A program made the translations under genes and the position numbers. Below are positions 4,780 to 55,720 of a DNA stretch of 64,000 bases, piece after piece. The DNA is from Nitrospirota bacterium (lineage in GTDB: Bacteria; Nitrospirota; UBA9217). The first letter of the stretch is position 1. The number at the start of each line of letters is the position of its first letter. The notes beneath the pieces are model-generated. The model was given only the letters and a program-made list of their open reading frames with translations, had not been told where the DNA came from and did no database searches. The stretch lies in the NCBI GenBank assembly GCA_963749655.1, contig CAVVOB010000012.1, positions 205,502 through 269,501 on the forward strand, written 5' to 3'.

Positions 4780-4955
4780 ATGAGAAGAGACATCTGGATT
4801 TTCCTGTTTTTCGTCGGCATCCTGTTCTTCGGCTGGCCGATCCTCAGCATCTTCAACAACGGCCTGGCTTCTATCTTTTCATTGTCTGGCTGCTCTTCAT
4901 CGTGTTCATCTTCATTGCCGTAACATTCCCGCGAAGAGAGGACAATAACGGATAA
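4780..4955 (+). CDS. small two-helix membrane protein upstream of SSS-kinase (frameshift near 4868)
   Basis: MRRDIWIFLFFVGILFFGWP joined to FYLFIVWLLFIVFIFIAVT; AAAGGA RBS; stop abuts next GTG. Confidence 0.7.
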
Positions 4956-7915
4956 GTGTTTTCTCCCTGGGTCCTGCTTGCTGTAATACTTTCCTATCTC
5001 CTGCTCCTCTTTTCGGTCGCCTATTTCGCCGAACGCAAGGAGGCGCAGGGCAGGAGCCTCGTCTCCAATCCCTACATCTATTCGCTCTCCCTTGCCGTAT
5101 ACTGCACCTCCTGGACGTTCTACGGCAGCGTGGGCAAGGCCGCCAATTCGGGCCTGAGCTTTCTCACGATCTATATCGGACCGACGCTCATGGCGGCGCT
5201 CTGGTGGGTCGTCCTGCGCAAGATCGTCCTATCGCGAAGGAGAACCGGATCACCACGATCTCGGACTTCATCTCGTCGCGCTACGGAAAGTCCCTCGGCC
5301 TGTCGGTCCTGGTCACGATCGTGGCGGTCGTCGGCATCACGCCCTATCTCGGGCTCCAGCTCAAGGCCATCATGACCGCCTTTGCCCTGCTCTCGGGGAG
5401 GTCCCAGGGCAGCCACCTGGCAGGCTGGTTCACGGGCTGGTTCATCTCGCTGCTGCTCGGGCATCTTCGCCGTCATCTTCGGAGCGCGAAGGCTCGATGC
5501 GTCGGAGCGCCACGGCGGCCTGGTCTTTGCCGTGGCCTTCGAGTCGGCGATCAAGCTGGTCGCGTTTCTGCTCGTCGGGGTCTTCGTGACCTACGGGCTC
5601 TTCAACGGGTTCGGCGACATCTTCGGAGGATCGCCGCGGGGCCCTACGCCCCGCTCATGAAGATCGGCGACGGGTCTCCGGTCAGCTTTCTGGAATGGAC
5701 CTCGCTCACCTTTCTGTCCATGATGGCCATCCTGTTCCTGCCCCGCCAGTTCCATGTGGCGGTCGTGGAAAACTATTCGGTGGACCACATCAAGAAGGCC
5801 ATGTGGCTGTTTCCGCTGTATCTGTTCCTGATCAACATCTTCGTGCTTCCCATCGCCTACGGCGGGCTGCTGCTGGGCGACATCCCGTCCACGGCCGACT
5901 ATTTCGTGCTGACCATCCCCATGCACCACGGCCACCCGCTCCTGGCGCTCATCGTGTTCATCGGCGGGTTCTCGGCGGCAACGGCCATGATCATCGTGGA
6001 ATCGGTCGCGCTTAGCACCATGGTGATGAACAGCTTCGTCATGCCGACGTTCTGGGACCTTCCGCCGTTCAAGAATTTTCATGCCGTGATGCTGAACATC
6101 AAGCGGATGGTCATCCTGGGGTGCGTGTTCCTGGGCTATATTTTCGCCGTGTACATCGGCGATTATTACAGCCTCGTGGACATCGGGCTCAAGTCCTTCG
6201 AAGCGGTCACGATCTTCGCGCCGTCCATCCTGCTCGGCCTCTACTGGAAGGGCGGCAACAAGAAGGGGGCCATCGCCGGCATCGTCGCCGGGTTCAGCGT
6301 CTGGATCTATACGCTGCTGATCCCGGCGCTCATGCGCGCCGGCATCATCCAGCAGGGCGATCTCCTGGAGGCGATCGTCAGGTCAACGCTGCTGAATCCC
6401 ACGGCGCTCTTCGGACTCGAAGGCCTCGACCGCTGGAGCCATTCCCTGTTCTGGGGGCTGTTGCTGAACCTGCTCTTCTATGTGGGCGTGTCGCTCTTCA
6501 CGAGGCAGTCCGATGCCGAGACGCACCAGGCCATCATTTTCGTCGATTCCTTTTCACCGCTCCAGTTCTCCGCAGACCCAGCGGCCGCTGGACATCGGCG
6601 AGATCGAGACATGCTCGGCCAGTATATCGGGCCCGGCGAAGCGCGCGAGCGTGGACGAGTTTTCTCAGATACAACGGACTGGAGCGCACAGAGCCTGTCC
6701 GGCGAGTGGCTGCTGAAGCTCCGGCAGGAGGCGGAGCGGATCCTTTCGGGCGCGCTGGGGCCGTCGATCAGCACGCTGGTGTTCCAGGACAAGACGGTCC
6801 TGACGCATGAAGAGGCGCTGCGGGTCTCGAAATCGATCCGGCAGATCTCGCGGAGCCTGCAGATTGTCGCGGCAGGAGCTTGCCGAGGCGAACCGGCAGC
6901 TCGCCATGCTCAAGGAGTTCAGCGAGAACATCATCGAAAGCCTTCCCCTCGGCGTGGCGACGCTCGATGAATCGCTGCGCGTCAAGTACTGGAACAGCGG
7001 CATGGAGCTGATCACGGGCGTGGAAAAGTCGGATGCCATGAACCGGGACGCCGCCAGCTGCTCACCTGCCTCGAGCCGCGCCTCTTCAGCCCCACGGTGC
7101 ATGAGGGCGAGATCACCTGCCGAAGGAACTTCGATCCCCAGATCATCCTGAAGGGGAACCTGAGCAAGCTCACCGGCGCCCACAAAGGGTATGTGCTCGT
7201 GCTCGAGGACATCACCGAGAAGAAGAAGATCGAGGAGGAGCTGTTCCGGGCGACCAAGCACGCCAGCGTGGGCCGGCTCGCCGCGGGCGTGGCCCACGAG
7301 ATCGGCAACCCCCTTGCCTCCATCTCGTCGCTGGTGCAGGAGCTCCAGACCGAGGAGCTGACGTCCTTTGTCCGGGAGTCGCTCACCACGATCAACGAGC
7401 ATGTGCACCGCATCGCGCGGATCGTGCGGAACCTCGGCGATTTCGCCCGGCTCTATCCGCGCCAGAAAATGCCGACGAGCCTCCGGGACATCCTGGAGAA
7501 CACGCTGAACCTGGTGCGGTACGACAGGAAGTTCAAAAAGATCGAGATCCGCACGGACGTGCAGGATACGCCGCCGCTCAAGATCGATCCCGGACCAGAT
7601 CCAGCAGGTGTTCCTGAACCTGATCCTGAACGCCCGCGACGCCATGCCCGACGGCGGAAGCCTCGACATCGTCCATCGGGCAGACCGACGGCCAGGTGCC
7701 GGATGGTCTTCGCCGACACCGGGACCGGCATCGAGACGGAGGTGAAGGACAAGGTCTTCGACCCCTTCTTCAGCACCAAGGGGCCGACCAAGGGCACGGG
7801 CCTGGGCCTCTCGATCTGCTACAGCATCATCAAGGACCACGGCGGCACGATCGAGATCGATTCGGAAAAGGACAAGGGGACGAAGTTCATTATCACGATT
7901 CCGGTGGAAGCGTAG
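4956..7915 (+). CDS. sodium:solute symporter-PAS-histidine kinase fusion (CbrA/CrbS-like), multiple frameshifts
   Basis: [31 protein letters not shown] (CbrA-type SSS domain); H-box [10 protein letters not shown]; FDPFFSTK and GTGLGLSI boxes. Confidence 0.88.
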
Positions 7916-7919
7916 ACGC

Positions 7920-8379
7920 TATCCGCAGATTACGCAGATTTCCAGATAGCTGACAAATATGCAGGAGCTGGCAAAAGAAATGGTCGAGGCGACAAAAAAT
8001 GATCCGAGGACTTATGCGGTCATTGGGGCCGCCATGGAAGTCCATCAACAACTAGGATGCGGGTTCCTGGAAGGTGTATATCAAGAGGCGTTTGCACTGG
8101 AGTTGGCGGCAAAAGGCATCCCTTTTCAATCCGAAATGGAATTGCCGATTTCTTATAAGAGTAAGAGGCTTCGTACATCCTATCGTGTCGACTTTATCTG
8201 CTATGATTCTGTCATCGTCGAGCTTAAGGCTTTAGCAAAACTGTCCAAAACGGAAGAGGCTCAAATAATTAATTACTTGAAAGCGACTGGCTTTCCAATA
8301 GGCCTTCTCATAAATTTTGGTTCCACATCGCTTGAATACCGTCGTTTTGCGTTTTCTCACTCTGCGGAATCTGCGGATA
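7920..8379. mobile_element. inverted-repeat-bounded GxxExxY cassette (putative)
   Basis: TATCCGCAGATTACGCAGA (7920-7938) and TCTGCGGAATCTGCGGATA (8361-8379) are reverse complements at 18/19 positions; AT-rich interior; sits between kinase and regulator. Confidence 0.6.
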
Positions 8380-8393
8380 AATATATACAATAG
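7959..8393 (+). CDS. GxxExxY protein (PD-(D/E)XK nuclease superfamily)
   Basis: LGCGFLEGVYQEA, RVDFIC...IVELKA, AQIINYLKATG, GLLINFG. Confidence 0.92.
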   Translation: MQELAKEMVEATKNDPRTYAVIGAAMEVHQQLGCGFLEGVYQEAFALELAAKGIPFQSEMELPISYKSKRLRTSYRVDFICYDSVIVELKALAKLSKTEEAQIINYLKATGFPIGLLINFGSTSLEYRRFAFSHSAESADKYIQ

Positions 8394-8401
8394 AGGTTTC
8401 A

Positions 8402-9763
8402 ATGTCCAAAAGCATCTTGATCGTGGAAGACGAAGAGACGCTGCGGGAGTCCATCAAGCGGATCTTCACCAAGGAAGGCTACGCCGTGGAAGGGGCGGAG
8501 TCGGCGGAGAAGGGCTGGAGCTGCTGGGCACGAACAGTCTACGACGTGATCATCTCGGACATCATCCTGCCGGGCATGGACGGCATCGAGATGCTCACCA
8601 AGGTGCGGGAGCAGATCCCGGACCAGATCGTCATCGTCGTCACCGCCTATGCGTCGCTCGATACGTCGGTCAAGGCGCTCCGGGCCGGCGCCTACGACTA
8701 CATCATGAAGCCGATCATCCACGAGGAGATCAAGCAGATCGTCCGGAACGCGCTCCGCCAGAAGAGCCTCCAGACCGAGAACGTGCTGCTCAAGCGGGAG
8801 ATCGGGAAGGACTACGATTTCAGCAGCATCATCGGCGAGAGCGCCGGCGCTCAAGACCATCTCGACGAGGTCAAGAAGGTCACGGACACCAAGAGCAGCG
8901 TGCTGCTCCTCGGCGAGACCGGCACGGGCAAGGAGCTCTTTGCGCGGGTCATCCACCACAACAGCTCCCGGCGCGACATGCCCTTTGTCCCGATCAACTG
9001 CTCCGCGATCCCCGAGAACCTGCTCGAGACCGAGCTCTTCGGCCACGTGCGCGGCGCCTTTACCGGCGCCGTGGCGACCAAGAAGGGCATCCTCGAGGAC
9101 GCCGAGGGCGGCACCGTGTTCCTCGACGAGATCGGCGACATGAGCCTGGCGCTCCAGGCCAAGCTGCTCCGCGTGATCGAGGACCAGGTGATCCGGCCCG
9201 TGGGCAGCACCAAGGGCACCAAGGTGGACATCCGGTTCATCACGGCGACGAACAAGGACCTGAAGTCCGCGGTCAAGACGGAGCGCGTTCCGCGAGGACC
9301 TCTACTACCGCATCAATGTCATCTCGCTCCAGATCCCGCCGCTCCGGGAACGGAAGGAAGACATCCGCGTCGCTGGTGCAGCACTACCTGGCAGATATGC
9401 CCAGGAGATGGGCAGGCAGGTCAAGGAGCTCTCCCCCGAAGCCATGGATCTCATGATGAACTACGAGTGGGCCGGGAACGTGCGCGAGCTCCAGAACGTC
9501 ATCGAGCGGGCCATCCTCATTTCCGACGGCGACGTCATCAGGCCGGAGCATCTGCCCGGCGGCGTGACGGCCGGGATCGACGTTCGAGCTCGAGTCCTTC
9601 GACCAGAAGCTTTCGATCGAGGACTACACCAAGGCCTTCATCCTGCGCTACCAGGCCGAGTTCAACGAACAGCAGCTCGCCGATCATGCTCGGGATCACC
9701 CGGAAATCGCTCTGGGAGAAGCGGAAGAAATGGGGGATCCCGAAAGAGCGGCAGGTCACATAG
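8402..9763 (+). CDS. sigma-54-dependent response regulator (NtrC/CbrB-like), frameshifted
   Basis: REC domain (VEDE, DIILPG), GETGTGKE, GAFTGA, FLDEIG, C-terminal LGITRKSLWEK HTH. Confidence 0.92.
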   Translation: MSKSILIVEDEETLRESIKRIFTKEGYAVEGAESAEKGWSCWARTVYDVIISDIILPGMDGIEMLTKVREQIPDQIVIVVTAYASLDTSVKALRAGAYDYIMKPIIHEEIKQIVRNALRQKSLQTENVLLKREIGKDYDFSSIIGESAGAQDHLDEVKKVTDTKSSVLLLGETGTGKELFARVIHHNSSRRDMPFVPINCSAIPENLLETELFGHVRGAFTGAVATKKGILEDAEGGTVFLDEIGDMSLALQAKLLRVIEDQVIRPVGSTKGTKVDIRFITATNKDLKSAVKTERVPRGPLLPHQCHLAPDPAAPGTEGRHPRRWCSTTWQICPGDGQAGQGALPRSHGSHDELRVGRERARAPERHRAGHPHFRRRRHQAGASARRRDGRDRRSSSSPSTRSFRSRTTPRPSSCATRPSSTNSSSPIMLGITRKSLWEKRKKWGIPKERQVT

Positions 9764-9841: not shown

Positions 9842-10118
9842 AAACCTGGAAGGGCAGTTGGAACCACAGATAAACACGGATGAACGCAGATGAAAAAAGG
9901 TATACGAGTGCTTCAAGGATTTGCATTAACGCTCTGACTTATCTGTGTCTATCAGTGTTCATCCATGGTTAATTGTTCTTCAGTCCATCAAAAACCTGGA
10001 AGGGCAGATGGAACCACAGATAAACACGGATGAACGCAGATGAAAAAATGCATACGAGTATTAACGCGCTTATTTATCCGTGTCTATCAGTGTTCATCCG
10101 TGGTTAATTGTTCTTCAG
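9842..10118. repeat. two tandem copies of a palindromic MITE-like element (9842-9983, 9992-10118)
   Basis: Both begin AAACCTGGAAGGGCAG.TGGAACCACAGATAAACACGGATGAACGCAGATG and end ATC.GTGTCTATCAGTGTTCATCC.TGGTTAATTGTTCTTCAG. Confidence 0.9.
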
Positions 10119-14471: not shown

Positions 14472-14568
14472 AGCCGGCAACGGTCGTTTCTCCTATTCTT
14501 TTTTCCCATTTTCCCCTTTTTCTGCGTTCATCTGCGTCATCTTCGGACAATATGATGAACGGTTTTCC

Positions 14569-17377: not shown

Positions 17378-17446
17378 CGTCATGCCGGACTCGATCCGGC
17401 ATCCAGATGTTTGATGGAGACTGGATTCCCGCCTTCGCGGGAATGA
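17378..17446. repeat. GTCAT..CCAG/CTGG..ATGA double-hairpin repeat (dRS3-like)
   Basis: CGTCATGCCGGACTCGATCCGGCATCCAG...CTGGATTCCCGCCTTCGCGGGAATGA. Confidence 0.8.
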
Positions 17447-22090: not shown

Positions 22091-22160
22091 GATGAGACCG
22101 TGAGTGTCGGACAAATACGGCTTGTGGGGTTTATCAGGGAAAGGCTGGTCCGGACAGCTT

Positions 22161-22248
22161 GTAGGTTGGGCTGAACGCTTTAGATGTGAAGCCCAACGCA
22201 TTATGATTGAGAAAAGTTGGGCACTGTGGACCTTTTTGCCCAACCTAC
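22161..22248. repeat. GTAG-type REP doublet, copy 1
   Basis: GTAGGTTGGGCTGAACG...GCCCAAC...GTTGGGC...GCCCAACCTAC. Confidence 0.9.
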
Positions 22249-22317
22249 GAACTACGTCCCCAAAGTTTCGCGGAGTTACTAAGGAGTCAAAATCTACGCA
22301 AAATGGCAAGAATATTT

Positions 22318-22457
22318 TCGCGCAAAGCCGCAAAGGCGCCAAGAAAGGCGCAAAGAGAGGCTCAGGCTTCTGGTTTTAAACCATAGACTTAAAGGTTTTC
22401 TTTGCGTCCTTCGCGTCTTCGCGGTTCAAAGGTTGTTTCCGGCTTGTCCGGGTTAGG
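22318..22457. repeat. CGCAAAG-type palindromic element ending in TTCCGGCTTGTCCGGGTTAGG
   Basis: Left arm CGCAAAGCCGCAAAGGCGCCAAG, right arm CTTTGCGTCCTTCGCGTCTTCGCG; 18-nt end identical to 55700-55717. Confidence 0.75.
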
Positions 22458-23949: not shown

Positions 23950-24037
23950 GTAGGTTGGGCTGAACGCTTTACATGTAAAGCCCAACGCATCATGATTGAG
24001 AAATGTTGGGCAGTGTGGAGCTTTTTGCCCAAACTAC
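23950..24037. repeat. GTAG-type REP doublet, copy 2
   Basis: Near-identical to 22161-22248. Confidence 0.9.
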
Positions 24038-24300
24038 GAACTGATCTTTAAAGTGAGTTTATTGCCGGTTATTTGATATGTCCCACTATAGAAATCACCA
24101 CCTTCGTAATTTGAATCTGTTTTAAAAGTGTTGTCTGGTGTAAATTTGAAATACAAGCCTAATTCGCCTATATCCGGCCCCCATACATTGTTCATTAGAT
24201 AATTCTTCGTCAGCACATCTGCTGCGCTGCCAACTTTCGAAGAAATCACCGACACAAACATCGCAAGGATCAAAAATAAAAAATTTGTAGTTCTAGCCAT
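24034..24300 (-). pseudogene. exported protein, probably 3'-truncated at a REP
   Basis: GGGAGAGG RBS, signal peptide, AT-rich; its TAG stop lies inside the REP end. Confidence 0.6.
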
Positions 24301-24340: not shown

Positions 24341-24469
24341 GTAGGTTGGGCTGAACGCCTTACATGTGAAGCCCAACGCATCATGATTGAGAAATGTTGG
24401 GCAGTGTGGAGCTTTTTGCCCAACCTACGAACTTCACGCTGCAGGTCGGGTCGCGTTTGTGACCCGACA
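24341..24469. repeat. GTAG-type REP doublet copy 3 (24341-24428) plus single GTCGGG REP variant (24441-24469)
   Basis: Near-identical to copy 2; then GCAGGTCGGGTCGCGTTTGTGACCCGACA. Confidence 0.88.
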
Positions 24470-24634: not shown

Positions 24635-24710
24635 TTACGTTTTCGAGCTTAGTAGGCCCACAAGTCAGTCGGCTTAACTTTGAAATTATCGTTAAACAAA
24701 TATGCAGCTG

Positions 24711-24818
24711 GTAGGTCGGGTAGAGCGAAGCGAAACCCGACATTTTCAGTTCATTATCTGTGCGAATATACTAGCATACAGGCGTCGGGTTTCACAAAAA
24801 ACGTTCTACTCGACATAC
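24711..24818. repeat. GTAG-type REP doublet (GTCGGG subfamily)
   Basis: GTAGGTCGGGTAGAGCGAAGCGAAACCCGAC...GTCGGGTTTC...CTACTCGACATAC. Confidence 0.8.
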
Positions 24819-24859: not shown

Positions 24860-25516
24860 TTACGTTTTCGAGCTTAGTATGGCCCACAAGTCAGTCGGCT
24901 TAACTTTAAAATTATCGTTAAATAAATATGCAGTAAAAAAAACAAAGACAATAAAGCTGGCAAGAATGCCGATCTGCTTCGTCGATATTTTCTGAATTTC
25001 CTGTCTGGCTTTTGCATCGCATATTTCACCAGGGCAATACTGCGCTTTCTCCCTATAAAACCAGCCGTAGAACAGGCACCCTAAACAAATGCCGAAGGCG
25101 GATTCGAAAAACAGGAATATCAGGCAGGTTAGACAGATCAAACCCGTGATGATGCTGTAGGAATTTACGATCACCATGAGAAGGAACATGATTGACGCCA
25201 AAACCAGACCTATCACCCAGGCGAACTTTTTCTGAGGCGCGCCGACGTATTCGGGATTCTGCCTGCGCACAATCAACCGGCCGATGATCAGGGTTGGAGA
25301 AAATCGTGGATTGACGAAGACACGGATTATGAAATCTGCGAGAAAGATGGTGATAATGTACTTGATCATTAGAAAGTTTTCTTTGAAGATTATCAGCATT
25401 AAAGCTATAAACATAAATAAAAAGAGAATTCCTGCCGATGCCCGTACTTCACGCTCATTCAGGACCGGAATCTTAAAGCCTTCTACCGTTTCGCCGAATT
25501 GTATCGCTTTGTTCAT
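24860..25516 (-). CDS. DUF4395-family membrane protein
   Basis: VLNEREVRASAGILF, PQKKFAW, FFESAFGICLGC. Confidence 0.8.
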   Translation of the reverse strand: MNKAIQFGETVEGFKIPVLNEREVRASAGILFLFMFIALMLIIFKENFLMIKYIITIFLADFIIRVFVNPRFSPTLIIGRLIVRRQNPEYVGAPQKKFAWVIGLVLASIMFLLMVIVNSYSIITGLICLTCLIFLFFESAFGICLGCLFYGWFYREKAQYCPGEICDAKARQEIQKISTKQIGILASFIVFVFFTAYLFNDNFKVKPTDLWAILSSKT

Positions 25517-25565: not shown

Positions 25566-25641
25566 GTAGGTTGGGCTACGCATCATAGCCCAACATTTTT
25601 TGAATTCTGTTGGGCAAGGTAAGGCTTTTTGCCCAACCTAC
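25566..25641. repeat. GTAG-type REP doublet, shorter variant
   Basis: GTAGGTTGGGCTA...TAGCCCAAC...GTTGGGCAA...TTGCCCAACCTAC. Confidence 0.85.
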
Positions 25642-26492: not shown

Positions 26493-26623
26493 GGGGCCTC
26501 CTCGAAAAACAATCTATGTCGCGAAGAGCCATTGACTTCAATTGAAGAATTTTCTATGGTTACCCTATCGATCTGCTATCATCTAAAGAATATCATAAAT
26601 AGGGAAGAAAAATGACCTCCCCC

Positions 26624-26682
26624 GTCATTCCTGCGCAGGCAGGAAACCAGGCTGTCACGGGTCCTCGTTTCACGGGGATGAC
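26624..26682. repeat. GTCATTCC double-hairpin repeat (dRS3-like)
   Basis: GTCATTCCTGCGCAGGCAGGAAACCAG...CACGGGGATGAC. Confidence 0.75.
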
Positions 26683-26726
26683 AAATCAGGCTGCAAGTGC
26701 GGCTTTTAAATGCTGAAGATTATTGT

Positions 26727-27449
26727 ATGAACGTTATTCACAAAATATGCCGTCCTGACGGCTTAAAGACGATCGTGAGCGCAGGCGCCTTCCTTCTCTG
26801 CTCAGCCGCTGCAATCGGTTTAGCAGGCCAGGACCTTTCCTCGCCCGATTCTGTTGACGCCAAGCGCGCGGTGACCATTGAATACAGCGCCCTGAATCAC
26901 GCAACCTCTTATACTGCTTCCAGCGGAGACTGCTCCATCACCTGGATCGCCTACGACAACGGGCCCAACCAGGGCATCATCAAGCACTCGCCCCGATGCG
27001 ATGCGCCCATGGAGTTGCAGATTTCACTTATGACAAAGATCTGCACGGCGTTCTTCGGCCATGACAAGAATGCCCGAACATATCGAACATTGTTCTGGGG
27101 CGGGCTTGAAGCAGAACAAAAACCTGCTTCCCAGGATCTGCAGTTCAGGCTCGCGCTGGCAGCATATCGATCACCCGGGTGGGATGCTCGGAAGGGGAAG
27201 CCGAAAAACGGGGACATCAACGGGTTCATAAGGAAGCTTGCGAACGAGACGCCGATCTACCGGGAACTGCAGGAGCTGTTTCGCGGTTTTGATATGCAGA
27301 TAAAGCTCGCGAGTGTGGAGAAGGTCAGGGTCCTGGAAGCGGGGAAGCTTCCGTTTTACAGCCGGCTCAGACAGCAGGGGGTCGCGGCAACAGACAGGCT
27401 GCCCTTCGACTGTATGGCATGGTTTTCCTTATCAGTCCTTTCCCAATAG
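26727..27449 (+). CDS. hypothetical exported protein
   Basis: ORF with N-terminal hydrophobic segment; no family recognised. Confidence 0.65.
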   Translation: MNVIHKICRPDGLKTIVSAGAFLLCSAAAIGLAGQDLSSPDSVDAKRAVTIEYSALNHATSYTASSGDCSITWIAYDNGPNQGIIKHSPRCDAPMELQISLMTKICTAFFGHDKNARTYRTLFWGGLEAEQKPASQDLQFRLALAAYRSPGWDARKGKPKNGDINGFIRKLANETPIYRELQELFRGFDMQIKLASVEKVRVLEAGKLPFYSRLRQQGVAATDRLPFDCMAWFSLSVLSQ

Positions 27450-27568
27450 AAATCTGCCGGCAAAGGTTCTAACCTTTTTAAACAAGAAACCGTTTTTGAT
27501 TTTCTTTGCGGGTTTTGCGCGAGATAAGTTTTTCTTTTCTATTTATGATATTCTCCAAGGAGGCGGCA

Positions 27569-28423: not shown

Positions 28424-28484
<61 letters not shown>

Positions 28485-28510
28485 TCTCCTCACTCCTCAC
28501 CGAGTTAATC

Positions 28511-29404: not shown

Positions 29405-29586
29405 CAGGGTCCAGGGTCCGGTAAAAACTGGGTTCAGGGTCCGGTAGCAAGGGTCTGGTAGAAACAGGGTCAAGGGTCCAGTAACGAGGGTCCGATAAAA
29501 ACTGGGTCCAGGGCCCGGTGGCAAGGGTCAAGGGTGGGGTATTTCCTGGCCCCTGGACCCCGGCCCCTGACTTCCCGGCCCCTGAC
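29405..29586. repeat. GGGTCCA-based tandem/inverted repeat
   Basis: About 37-bp degenerate units of GGGTC.AGGGTCCGGTA...AAAAACT followed by complementary arm CCCTGGACCCCGGCCCCTGAC. Confidence 0.8.
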
Positions 29587-29601
29587 TTTTGAGAGGTAAT
29601 C

Positions 29602-31594: not shown

Positions 31595-31683
31595 GGCAGT
31601 TGGAACCACGGATGAACACGGTTTAATAACCTTGTAATTCAATGAAAGAAGTCATCCGTGTCTATCCGTGTTAATCCGTGGTT
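31595..31683. repeat. palindromic MITE-like element, same family as 9842-10118
   Basis: GGCAGTTGGAACCACGGATGAACACGG...ATCCGTGTCTATCCGTGTTAATCCGTGGTT. Confidence 0.85.
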
Positions 31684-32344: not shown

Positions 32345-32460
32345 TCGGTAATCTCCGTCCTGCTGATAATTCGACCCGTACATCTGACTAAAGTTTATCG
32401 TTTGGTGGATTGGACGTCAATCGGCAATAATTCAATAATCGCCGTTCACCTTATGACTCC

Positions 32461-32487
32461 GTCATTCCTGCGAAGGCTGGAATCCAG
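32461..32487. repeat. half copy of GTCATTCC hairpin repeat
   Basis: GTCATTCCTGCGAAGGCTGGAATCCAG. Confidence 0.7.
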
Positions 32488-32573
32488 AGCTTAAGATTCT
32501 ACAGTATTTGCAGATTCGACGCACTTTGCAGCATAAATATTTTTGCTTTGCCTACATCAAAAAGATTGTAACG

Positions 32574-38265: not shown

Positions 38266-41200
38266 CTACGGTCCGGCAATGCTGTTGTATATGCCCTTTG
38301 TTTCCTCTGAGGGCTCGACCCCGAAGGCTGCCGACAGCGCCGTCTTGCAGCGGCGATAAACCTTCATGACCTCCGCCCGTGAACCCGCCTGCTGATGACA
38401 GAGCATGAGATTCTGATAAAATTCTTCCGCCACTTCATCCACTTCCAGCCCCCGTTCATAGCACTCGATCGCTTTGCGGATAGCTGATTGCCGGTTTCGG
38501 ATTGCCGCGTGCGCGTTGTCTTCCCCTTTCGAGCTACCCTGCTCCAGCCAGTAAGCGCCGAGCGTGCTCACCGCGCGGAGATACTTGCTGCGCAGACGCT
38601 CCCTGGCCGACATTGTCCACGGTTTTTCTTCGTCTGCCTCCAGGAAATGGCCGCGATAGAGCCGGAGCGCTCTTTCGAGCTGCTGCAGCACTTCGGATTT
38701 CGGAATCCGGACAGTGGATGTATGCCCGCAGTCCCTTGCCTCTGCTTTGTTTGTATATTCCGCATTCCGCAATACGCATTCCGCAAATTCGAGCTGCTTC
38801 TCGAAGGCCCATGCGTCCACCCGGCAAAATCGCCGATCAAGACTCAGTCTCCCCTCGCGGAGCCGGGTCACGTCGTCATTCCCCAGCAGCTGCCGCAGGC
38901 GGTGGAGCGTGGTCTTGAATGAAATGCGGGCGGCGTCTCCCTCCGCCTCGGGCCAGAGCGCGTCGATGATGCGCTCTTCGGATACATCGCGACCGCCGAA
39001 CGCGATGACCGCCTTCAGCATCTCCAGGGGCTTCTTCTGGACCTTGCCGCTGAAGGAAACCGGCTCGTCCCGCAGCAGGAGCCTGAATTCGCCAAGCGTC
39101 TCGATCCTTACCGGCCAGGGCCAGCTTTCAATGTGGAGGGGCGGCTCTTCGGGAACGAGATTGCGCTTGCGGATCAGATCCCGCACGAATTCCGTTTCGA
39201 TCCCGGCTTCGAGCGCCTTCATGCACAGGGGGGTTATCTCCTGTGAAATCCAGAGGGTATAATTGAACTGGGCGAACCCCTTTTTTCGTCCCAGCGCCAT
39301 GGCGTCGCGCAAACGGCGCATACCGGCCGCTTCCCGATGCTCTGCGAAATCCGTGCCCGCCTCTGAGAGGAGGCAGAAAAATTCAACGAGATCGCTTTTC
39401 ACGTCCTGCCCGATCCGGCGGCATGCGGCGGTCTGCGCCCTGGCCTGCGCATGCTTTCCTGTCGCGCGCAGCAAATGCGCCAAAGCGAGCCCGCTCTTGA
39501 CCTGGGCGCCCAGGAAGCCGATCCGCTGCGCGAGATCGTTCGCCGTCGCGGCGACAGACAGGGCGCGGGGAATGTCGCCTTCATGCGCGTAGTGGCAGGC
39601 CAGCATGAGGTGATAGTAGAACTTGTCGAGAGGGCGGCCCTGTTCCAGCGCAGAGGACATGGTTTCCAGGAGCTTCTCGGATTCGGCGAGGTTCCCCGAG
39701 GAAAGAGAAGCGCATACGCCCATGGTGAGGATCAGGTAATCCCAGCGGTGGACGCCGCTTTCCCTCGATATCTTCAATCCTTCATGCATGAGCGACATGC
39801 ACCGGTCGTAGGAACAGACCGCCCATGCGAACCAGGCGTCCGCCATCTTCCCCATGCACTGCGCAAGCGGCGACACGCTGCGGCTCGACGCCAGCAAGCG
39901 CCTGACGGCTCCCAGGGCATGCTCGCACATCGTCCGGTCTCCCGCCTGGATGAAATGGGTGAACAGATAGTATCCCGTCAGCAGCCGCAGGCTCGGGTCT
40001 GCGGCGCCGTCGTTGAGAAGCGCCAGCGCCTTTTCCTTCCACAGGTCGAAGGACGGGTGCCGCGGTTGGCGGAGTGAAAGCGCCATGAAGATGCGGCTCG
40101 TGACATGTCCCTCCGTCTGCGGGGACGGGAACAGGGGGTATTCCTTCATCAGATCGCCGAGCAGCGCGATCCAGGCGTCCAGCTGGCCGAGGTCCCCCAA
40201 TTCCTGGATGATGGACTCCGTGACGCCAGACCAGGCGAGAAAGATCCCGAGGCGTCGCGGCGCTTTTTGAAAAGCTCGAAGGCTTTTTCAAAGCATCGAC
40301 GTCCCTCCCGAAGGTCGAAGGGCATCCTGCACACGCCCAACCAGTACGTCATCCACGGCTCTCCGCCGATGACCTCGTCGGGAACGGACGTGAGGTGCGC
40401 CTCGAGCGCACGGCTCCTTCCCTGGGACACCAGGACCCGTGCGATCGCAAGGACCGTCGGTACAAAGCTCTTCCACGCTCCCGCCAGCCGGTACAGTTCC
40501 ACCGCGTCCTCGGGCTGTCCTTCACGCTCGAGGAGCTTCCCTGCCTTTTGGAGGAGCTCCTCTATCTGCTCGGTGGAATAGGTCTGCCGCGCCCTGGCCT
40601 GGAGGAATTCCCTGAAGAGGGGGTGGTACTGATATACCGGATGGGGGAGGGAGCGCTGCTCCGTGAAAAAGTGGTTGCGGCTGAGCGTTGCAAGAACGGC
40701 TCCCGCGTCATCCCTGCCTGTCAGGGCCGACGCCGAGGGAGGAAAAATGCGCGGCAGGAAGGCGGTTTTGAGAAGGAAGGACCGTGTTTCCGGGTCCGTC
40801 TTTTCGAACAGCTCGGTTGCAAAGTAGTCGAAGAACTCCTGGGGGTTGAAACGGTCCATATCCATGGGAGCTCCGGCGAGCGTCCTCATCCGTTCCATCA
40901 GAAGCATGAGGCCTGCCGCCCAGCCCAGGGTCGTCTGCTGAATGCGGGTCAGAAGCTCCACCTTGAGCCCGCTCCGGCGGCCGGACCTGAAGAGCGCCCC
41001 GGTCTCGTTCATGTCGAACTTGAGATCCTCCCATCCGATGCCGTGGACCTTATTGTAGGTCTGCAGGACCGCCAGTGCAGGCGGAGGCGCGCCGCGGCTC
41101 ATGATCACGACCGAGATGCCCTCGGGAACGACGGACAGCGCTTCGCGGATCATGTCATGAAAGGGAGCGTCGTCGGCGATATGGTGATAATTGTCGAGAA

Positions 41201-41799: not shown

Positions 41800-42031
41800 A
41801 CCTGAAAAGAGCATGTAACCACGGATTAACACGGATAAACACGGGCAGGCTTCTGGGCTGCTTCAGGCTTGCATCGTGAATCACTCGGTAAGGTCTGGTT
41901 CAATCAGCATGATCGAACCAGCGAAAAAAACGAAGAGCTGTTTGGTTGAACCTGTCTGTGAGTAAGAGTCATTGTTCAAGAATCTTAACCGTGTTCATCC
42001 GTGGTTACAATTACTGTCTTTCTTTTCAGGT
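41800..42031. mobile_element. MITE-like element with nested terminal inverted repeats
   Basis: Outer perfect IR ACCTGAAAAGA (41800-41810)/TCTTTTCAGGT (42021-42031); inner GTAACCACGGATTAACACGG/CCGTGTTCATCCGTGGTTAC. Confidence 0.7.
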
Positions 42032-42937: not shown

Positions 42938-42997
42938 TTAAGAATAGTTGATGATCTTGATGTTCATTCCGAATTCCGCATTCCGAATCCCTCATTT

Positions 42998-55668: not shown

Positions 55669-55720
55669 CTTTGCGGCTTTGCGGCTTTGCGCGAGACGAT
55701 TCCGGCTTGTCCGGGTTGGG
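55669..55720. repeat. CTTTGCGG tandem arm plus TTCCGGCTTGTCCGGGTT end
   Basis: Same end as 22437-22454. Confidence 0.75.

Follow-up and report, generated by a model that had tools for sequence, protein, structure and literature searches.

GxxExxY nuclease genes are, in most of the loci that we analyzed, enclosed by repeats made of tandem units, and in a few informative cases the unit follows the protein subfamily and not the host. The best explanation, to which we give a probability of roughly 0.6, is that a family of small polar repeats has GxxExxY as its cognate nuclease, a system comparable in lifestyle to RAYT and REPIN, long resident and rarely moving; cleavage and mobility are the parts that we infer. 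What favors it is the combination of enclosure by arms, occurrence at many sites, gene-less copies and their turnover, the match between unit and subfamily, an intact active site, and purifying selection. Against it count two of the 80 close loci without an arm, the weak signal in loci of the plasmid collection, and a hairpin subtype in the window that differs from the arms of the window's gene. "The window" is the whole 64-kb stretch of DNA under study, in which a motif scan found one GxxExxY gene.

The element and its protein

The gene is wedged between those of a histidine kinase fusion and a sigma-54 regulator (Table 1), and the closest named relatives of the latter are from Nitrospirota. 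The original prediction of a 19-bp inverted repeat around it was borne out: the 19-nt arms (7920-7938 and 8361-8379) are complementary at 18 of 19 positions, and their score of 16 was the highest among 976 equally spaced pairs across the 64 kb (runner-up, 14). The predicted junctions also held, since the kinase stop ends at 7915, with the left arm starting five bases further on, and the open reading frame (ORF) ends at 8393, just ahead of the regulator start at 8402. The CGCAGA(T) units said to bracket the gene are real, and the left arm gains a third, degenerate one that extends it to 7947, but the right arm lies inside the ORF and is translated in frame as SAESAD. The gene had further been described as AT-rich. 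Its GC content (0.44) is indeed below that of three host genes (0.59 to 0.63), but six intergenic stretches of the window are similar to it (0.42 to 0.47), so low GC alone does not indicate a recent arrival, and we discarded it as a sign of recent transfer.

The same order of kinase, element, and regulator, with similar arms, is found in locus L012 (contig JBLMWN010000206.1). The frameshifts of the window's kinase and regulator are probably assembly errors, since the L012 ortholog is intact. Frameshifts are numerous in conserved genes (4956-9763 and elsewhere), which suggests an uncorrected long-read assembly. A small membrane-peptide ORF (4781-4955) lies directly 5' of the kinase and is kept in L012 (around 424-600); the order of this ORF, kinase, and regulator is reminiscent of CbrX-CbrA-CbrB.

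Table 1. Features of the window, with positions counted from its first nucleotide
Feature	Position	Strand	Description
Upstream host gene	4956..7915	+	Sodium/solute-symporter-histidine kinase fusion, in several frameshifted pieces; L012 ortholog intact, 981 aa
Left arm	7920..7947	+	ATCC head and three 9-nt units of the C(G/C)CAGAT type, of which the last is degenerate
GxxExxY gene	7959..8393	+	144 aa, predicted RecB/Cas4-like PD-(D/E)XK nuclease; putative catalytic E38, D78, E88, K90, Q102, Y106
Right arm	8361..8379	-	Two units in the opposite orientation to the left arm; lies within the final codons of the gene
Downstream host gene	8402..9763	+	Response regulator, sigma-54 (NtrC-type); frameshift after about residue 293
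Gene-less hairpin	9862..9970		10-nt units, AACCAC head, right after the regulator; absent from the corresponding place in L012
Gene-less hairpin	10012..10105		Tandem near-duplicate of 9862-9970, outer flanks included
Single arm	14521..14545	-	Arm of the same broad type, 3' of a stop codon and flanked by convergent genes
Gene-less hairpin	31604..31683		10-nt-unit subtype, between convergent genes
Gene-less inverted pair	41814..42009		10-nt-unit subtype, 146-nt spacer

The family assignment made in the original prediction proved right, with 146.7 bits for the ORF against TIGR04256 (GxxExxY; cutoff, 35) and 140.8 bits against PF13366 (PDDEXK_3; cutoff, 22), the only two profiles that matched. A structure model built from an alignment of 110 sequences (pLDDT 91) had Cas4 SSO0001 as its nearest fold (Z 8.2, rmsd 3.2, 99 aligned residues), with further matches to type II restriction enzymes, Hjc, and lambda-type exonucleases. 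These middling scores allow a fold to be assigned, but not a function. I-Bth0305I (rank 42) and tRNA splicing endonucleases were among the weak matches; no HUH protein was among the fold matches listed, which by itself excludes nothing. A sequence search of solved structures gave nothing below E 0.96, and an Atlas search matched only the GxxExxY family itself.

RecB-like PD-(D/E)XK nucleases combine the core fold with the residues E...D...ExK...QxxxY. In the GxxExxY loci, D78, E88, K90, and Q102 are conserved in 88 of 88 and Y106 in 82; E38 is conserved in 87, a count that is circular because this residue belonged to the scan pattern. From the model and the alignment, we predict a RecB/Cas4-like nuclease of the PD-(D/E)XK superfamily in which the catalytic residues are intact. 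Cas4 itself lies in a cas context and binds an Fe-S cluster through four cysteines, whereas the window protein has two cysteines and a kinase and a regulator as neighbors. Twelve locus translations contained apparent stops, eleven of which are the true stop ahead of an arm peptide; the remaining one (L057) lies in the core and is the single such case among the 80 genome loci. The family is large (10,487 clusters at 50% identity, E up to 1e-10), and many homologs have SAKSA-like C-terminal ends or TQITQ-like starts, which are arms read in frame. Four proteins of 250 to 295 aa (P0257, P0290, P0318, and P0327) carry two tandem GxxExxY domains, a hint that GxxExxY may act as a dimer. PMC3424549 lists PDDEXK_3 as being of unknown function, with multiple transfers.

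Flanking repeats are a trait of the family

A genome scan with the GxxExxY protein confirmed at least 587 loci (at least 606 stretches), and the best 80 (56 to 70% identical, with labels from about 15 phylum-level groups) were analyzed for repeats in their 130-nt flanks. The original prediction had proposed looking for enriched inverted repeats around other GxxExxY genes, and the enrichment was clear: inverted repeats with a score of at least 14 were found in 57 of the 80 loci and in none of 1,185 control pairs from the same loci. Direct repeats of this score were rarer (17 of 80 loci, against 5 of the 1,185 controls). When each neighborhood was represented by one locus, 42 of 61 kept the inverted repeat (19 neighborhood-sharing rows dropped, window not counted). 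A motif finder placed arms on both sides of 68 of the 80 genes, on one side of 10 (one flank cut off), and on neither side of 2. Arms lay within 200 nt of 78 of the 80 genes, while elsewhere only 82 were found in 1.07 Mb, compared with none in 0.53 Mb of shuffled sequence.

In consensus, the arm reads ATCC(A/G)CAGATT and continues with units of 9 nt (222 cases) or 10 nt (47 cases). The innermost arms of the 68 two-sided loci point inward in 51, outward in 5, and in the same direction in 12 (8 + 4). Judged by its sequence, the arm is a polar repeat rather than a fixed terminus, since the consensus is directional and the orientation of the innermost pair varies. The arms had initially been called terminal inverted repeats; flanking repeats are indeed a family trait, but the inverted arrangement is not strict, 17 of the 68 two-sided loci being oriented otherwise and some GxxExxY genes sitting within arm arrays. 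Elements are compact, spanning 415 to 556 nt in the 42 measured, and single arms fold at -0.1 and -2.5 kcal/mol.

The two arms of an element resemble each other more than they resemble those of other elements: in 32 elements, the left/right match was 518, against 478.8 between elements, a value reached in none of 20,000 permutations. The effect extends to bases -10 to -3 outside the arm (102 versus 75.8, P = 0.0004) and is lost at bases -20 to -11 of the same elements. As originally noted, the window element has no target-site duplication, and the longest direct repeats flanking 43 elements equaled the between-element control, with no excess attributable to target duplication. The eight plasmid-collection loci, which are distant members, showed a flanking inverted repeat with a score of at least 14 in only 3 cases; several of the others have, by eye, tandem-unit repeats in other arrangements.

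Gene-less copies

At 12 of the 80 loci, inward pairs that contain no gene lie more than 300 nt from the GxxExxY gene. They number 16, of which three belong to arrays close to the gene, and they fold as hairpins of 70 to 190 nt. Two loci (L073 and L078) carry alternating arm arrays. In L063, a methyltransferase-like gene has three in-frame arm inserts (net +30, +51, and +57 nt) that are missing from its L081 ortholog. Other cargo was under-sampled, since loci were fetched via the gene; 14 stretches with stray arms yielded no other gene enclosed in the same way, and a 0.9-kb inward pair in L036 contained no convincing gene.

The window contains four gene-less pairs and a single arm (Table 1), and the place in L012 that corresponds to the first hairpin is occupied by other repeats. 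All four pairs have 10-nt units and an AACC head, whereas the arm of the window's gene has 9-nt units and an ATCC head. The proposal that this gene is the autonomous member of the local family is weakened accordingly: because the subtypes differ, the gene is not established as the partner of the local hairpins.

The repeat unit follows the protein subfamily

Among the close loci, the C(A/G)CAGAT unit is common to different phyla. More distant proteins have other units, namely, CACAGAG in Bacteroides and Bernardetia and CGCGAAG in Sphingomonas. One Gemmatirosa replicon carries two paralogs with different units: CGCGGAT for the one nearer to the window protein (L002), and CGCAGAG, in hairpins to the left and right of the gene, for a frameshifted one (L092) nearer to the Bacteroides protein with its CACAGAG unit. 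In the plasmid collection, three GxxExxY paralogs share one replicon. The unit thus tracks the subfamily across phyla and within one replicon, and these few cases are the best sign in the sequences that the protein, and not the host, would set the repeat. Arms or hairpins with 8-nt CGCAAAG units, often near a short palindrome, occur in the window (22317-22425, 27505-27525, and 55669-55695) and in L012 (5580-5678); they resemble the arms of Sphingomonas GxxExxY and may belong to another paralog.

This association bears on the possibility that GxxExxY is a passenger, the hairpins being spread by another enzyme (RAYT or TIRYT) or by a host process while the gene lands in their loops or homes to a fixed site. 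Gene-bearing units do resemble hairpins with a long loop, the window junction seems patchily occupied among the matches listed (an indirect count, given below), the synonymous divergence of the nuclease exceeds that of its host genes, and a homing enzyme, I-Bth0305I, is among the weak fold matches. We nevertheless hold this account to be unlikely, as a passenger would be expected neither to share its unit with its subfamily nor to have an arm within 200 nt in nearly every case when arms are so sparse elsewhere, and the many unrelated sites described next do not fit a single homing target.

Insertion sites and empty alleles

The 81 loci fall into about 62 neighborhoods (crude ORF calls). Of 32 neighbors scanned, the named ones were unrelated and mostly housekeeping genes (gltB-gltD, nuoD, cysS, purH, gatA, and cysteine desulfurase/iscS-like), the typical placement being just 3' of a stop codon. 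In L031 and L039 (around 9870-9960), the element begins right after a tRNA-like sequence instead of a protein gene. Long ORFs ending within 60 nt of the left arm were co-oriented with the gene in 37 of 40 cases. Since, in addition, no sense-strand sigma-70 promoter or terminator was found in 7800-8450 of the window (a single antisense match was at chance level), the gene most likely rides on host transcription.

Empty alleles were found for two distant members, at junctions other than that of the window. The fabD-fabG junction of Sphingomonas is filled in L007 and empty in L009, and that between radA and a gene for an FAD protein in Bacteroidales is filled in L004 and empty in L011, with a different gene in a third species (L010). 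These alleles come from other species or genera, so the ends of the element could not be mapped with them. Only 8 of 72,556 plasmid records matched, all of them non-mobilizable and several chromosome-like, and none of 50,697 phage records did. Three copies (L063, L068, and L081) are hosted by restriction-modification operons. GxxExxY units in or beside such operons occur in different phyla (L063 10490-13240, L081, L068, and L086), and these operons are a possible transfer vehicle.

It is also improbable that GxxExxY is a host-domesticated repair or defense nuclease, with arms that serve as binding or self-marking sites, repeats that spread passively, and a gene that is not the mover. The RecB/Cas4-type active site, the copies in restriction-modification operons, and the long vertical inheritance under purifying selection described below would all suit such a role. 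However, PADLOC reported nothing beyond a weak Cas4 stretch (E 0.041), the neighbors show no functional theme, and operators need neither enclose the gene nor enter coding regions in frame.

Age and inheritance of the window copy

The L012 nuclease is 70% identical to that of the window. L012 is labeled Betaproteobacteria, although the listed relatives of the operon are from Nitrospirota; its contig is probably mis-binned, since its regulator is 88% identical to the window's. The presence of the element at the same junction in L012 partly agrees with the fixed, syntenic position in relatives that was to count against a selfish element, although the other half of that argument, a lack of flanking repeats at other GxxExxY genes, is contradicted by the family survey. 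Between the window and L012, the nuclease has pN 0.137 and pS 0.80, against 0.06 to 0.08 and 0.43 to 0.48 for the host genes. Synonymous sites were saturated in most same-site pairs, at dN 0.05 to 0.30.

Among the matches listed (for GxxExxY, the best 120 of at least 7,985 proteins), contigs seem to be shared with a regulator by five GxxExxY proteins and with just a kinase by two others, an indirect count; over 120 shifts, chance gave a mean of 0.9 regulator matches and never more than 4. Similarly indirect is the occupancy: 2 of 26 contigs that seemingly carry both host genes also match a listed GxxExxY protein. Eight operon-linked GxxExxY proteins form one side of a branch that separates them from 14 loci at other sites (support, 93/89; 20 ungrouped rows not counted) in a 42-row tree whose bootstrap was not fully settled; a quick tree of 110 rows left 62 of 107 branches open. 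The regulators of the operon-linked contigs are scattered among their relatives. The best other GxxExxY protein is 76% identical to that of the window, while the regulator has at least 119 relatives at 85 to 92%. These sequences are most simply read as the outcome of a single ancient insertion into a Nitrospirota-like lineage, which then persisted under purifying selection and was frequently lost; repeated re-invasion of the same junction is a possible alternative. Long residence under purifying selection needs either a benefit to the host or such re-invasion, and we favor neither. Eleven loci of Pyrinomonadaceae and four of Verrucomicrobia show a similarly long residence. Monophyly of the Acidobacteriota proteins is rejected (p-AU 8.6e-5 in a test on 30 of the 81 rows, 13 of the 30 from Acidobacteriota), which could reflect transfer, paralogy, or mis-binning.

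An active element of the insertion sequence (IS) type, with the arms as terminal inverted repeats, the protein as transposase, and the window copy as a recent hop, is quite unlikely in view of this history. The mostly inward arms, the compact span, the many sites, and the split Acidobacteriota proteins would agree with it, and PMC3424549 offers TnsA as a PD-(D/E)XK protein of transposition. Yet the element occupies the same junction in L012 with a well-diverged protein, the operon-linked proteins keep to one side of their branch, and the closest other nuclease is far less similar than the many relatives of the regulator; target duplications are missing, arm orientations are mixed, and plasmids and phages are nearly devoid of the gene. 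An RNA intervening sequence, with arms that pair in the operon mRNA and a gene excised by RNase III or by its own protein, is highly improbable: the arms do pair in the predicted fold of the transcript, genes are co-oriented within operons, and tRNA splicing endonucleases are among the weak fold matches, but mismatches in arm pairing on the sense strand are as often G-U (19) as A-C (20), which points to pairing at the DNA and not the mRNA level, whole-element folding is unremarkable (z = -1.24), the 12 direct arrangements are unable to pair, the intragenic inserts keep the reading frame, and no Rfam family matched in the window or in three repeat-rich loci, one tRNA excepted.

A possible mechanism

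If GxxExxY is the cognate nuclease of the repeats, its binding sites would be the C(A/G)CAGAT units, which recur at intervals of roughly one helical turn, and it would nick or cut at or near the arms, most simply at the cruciform or hairpin of an inverted pair. PD-(D/E)XK enzymes hydrolyze DNA without a covalent intermediate. With such chemistry, the copying would have to be done by host repair, which might bring arms into the break by template switching, gene conversion, or end joining. Repair-based copying would account for the lack of target duplication, the variable number and orientation of units, the local tandem duplicates, and the replacement-type inserts. Gene-less hairpins would turn over faster than the gene, and the gene-bearing unit would move rarely, by the same route as the hairpins, and would often be lost. 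The mover could also be a tyrosine transposase elsewhere in the genome, since the window carries GTAG- and CGTC-type repeats as well. More generally, and at slightly less than even odds, we tentatively propose that there is a second class of REPIN-like replicators, which differs in its chemistry and is driven by GxxExxY proteins, with a unit specific to each subfamily, a cut at arms or a cruciform, and copying by host repair without transposase chemistry.

Comparison with known systems

The original analogy with REP/RAYT holds well, and many unrelated operons, gene-less copies, and empty alleles of two distant members were indeed found. In REPtrons (RAYT or TnpA-REP with its REPs, REPINs, and BIMEs; PMC8266576 and PMC5581495), an enzyme gene is likewise surrounded by its cognate repeats, and inverted doublets without a gene as well as alternating arrays occur elsewhere; of the gene-less GxxExxY copies, the window has only a related subtype. 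As with GxxExxY, the position is mostly after stop codons, and the repeat type is specific to the protein group. RAYTs are also single-copy, rare on plasmids, and inherited vertically over long periods. The shared sites, the purifying selection, and the few plasmid records of GxxExxY are in keeping with such a distribution, the three paralogs on one replicon and the roughly 62 neighborhoods less so. RAYT is an HUH enzyme with a catalytic tyrosine (Y1 transposase) and not a PD-(D/E)XK enzyme, and a REP is a palindrome of 20 to 50 nt preceded by GTAG (or CGTC), whereas the single GxxExxY arm is a run of tandem units without such a tag. A further difference from RAYT is the occurrence of GxxExxY genes at many sites.

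TIRtrons (Di Nocera 2013, PMC3733652) also place a gene between long inverted repeats, which may extend into either end of it, and TIR repeats too occur as singles, dimers, and clusters, in Acidobacteria among others. TIRtrons encode tyrosine transposases, however, while the GxxExxY protein matches only its own family profiles, and the GGGGWSAS of many TIRs is missing from the arm consensus; this comparison with TIRs is one of descriptions, not of sequences. Bacterial MITEs with a partner IS (RUP, NEMIS, and ERIC; PMC3733652) share with the gene-less copies a non-coding length of 70 to 300 nt, inverted ends of 15 to 30 nt, and a position beside genes. Unlike MITE/IS pairs, the GxxExxY arms come without a DDE transposase, target duplication, or conserved interior, and their tandem-unit ends vary in number and orientation. 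In-frame inserts in proteins recall RPE elements. Homing endonucleases target a single site, at which they cleave the empty allele, whereas GxxExxY is a solitary gene that occupies many sites and lies within repeats of its own. TnsA requires TnsB and TnsC, and XisH requires a recombinase. These two and I-Bth0305I (PMC3424549) are examples of the same nuclease superfamily in DNA mobility.

The window protein is a plain member of TIGR04256/PF13366, whose records do not mention an association with repeats. In the literature covered, which lies largely outside the subscription journals, does not extend to figures or supplements, and includes 10.1101/2021.01.26.428298, PMC12085832, and 10.1101/2021.07.10.451892, two papers mention GxxExxY in passing, and no account of a link between it and repeats was found.

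If the nuclease proves to be the mover, the system would be categorically new. The large GxxExxY family gains a specific and testable candidate substrate, and a lifestyle like that of RAYT and REPIN, in which a long-resident enzyme tends small non-coding replicators, may have arisen a second time via an unrelated nuclease. This bears on the open question of the spread of such repeats and the reasons for which the enzymes are retained. A 130-residue nuclease whose target unit would vary with its subfamily is also a compact model of protein-DNA coevolution. The arms explain the recurrent TQITQ- and SAKSA-type tails of GxxExxY proteins and similar inserts in other genes, and, if the proposal is true, one cause would underlie much of the unexplained tandem-unit inverted repeat DNA, and the peptide inserts that it leaves in proteins, in Acidobacteria, Planctomycetes, Chloroflexi, Bacteroidota, and Nitrospirota.

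Other repeats in the window

GTAG-tagged REP doublets resembling REPINs lie at 22160-22250, 23950-24040, 24341-24433, 24714-24750, and 25567-25641, and CGTC/GTCAT-type palindromic repeats lie at 17381-17445, 26624-26682, and 32460-32488. Heptamer tandem repeats (GAGTCAG x8.7, ATTCCGC, and ATTCCGA) follow stop codons at 28424-28500, 38757-38785, and 42966-42996, as well as at 5450-5530 of L012; one of them is wedged between genes resembling those of the exonuclease VII small subunit and of a polyprenyl synthase. We take heptamer repeats after stops to be typical of the flanks of four-helix-bundle genes. A 37-nt repeat (x3.2) with a CAGGGTC unit and an inverted partner lies between two co-oriented genes (29405-29590). 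An inverted repeat of 26 nt (92%), with its copies at 26587-26612 and 27529-27554, 916 nt apart, surrounds an ORF of 250 aa (26697-27449) together with a CGTC-type repeat, and the 3' end of the gene at 24860-25516 is directly duplicated around a GTAG repeat (24641-24715 and 24863-24935).
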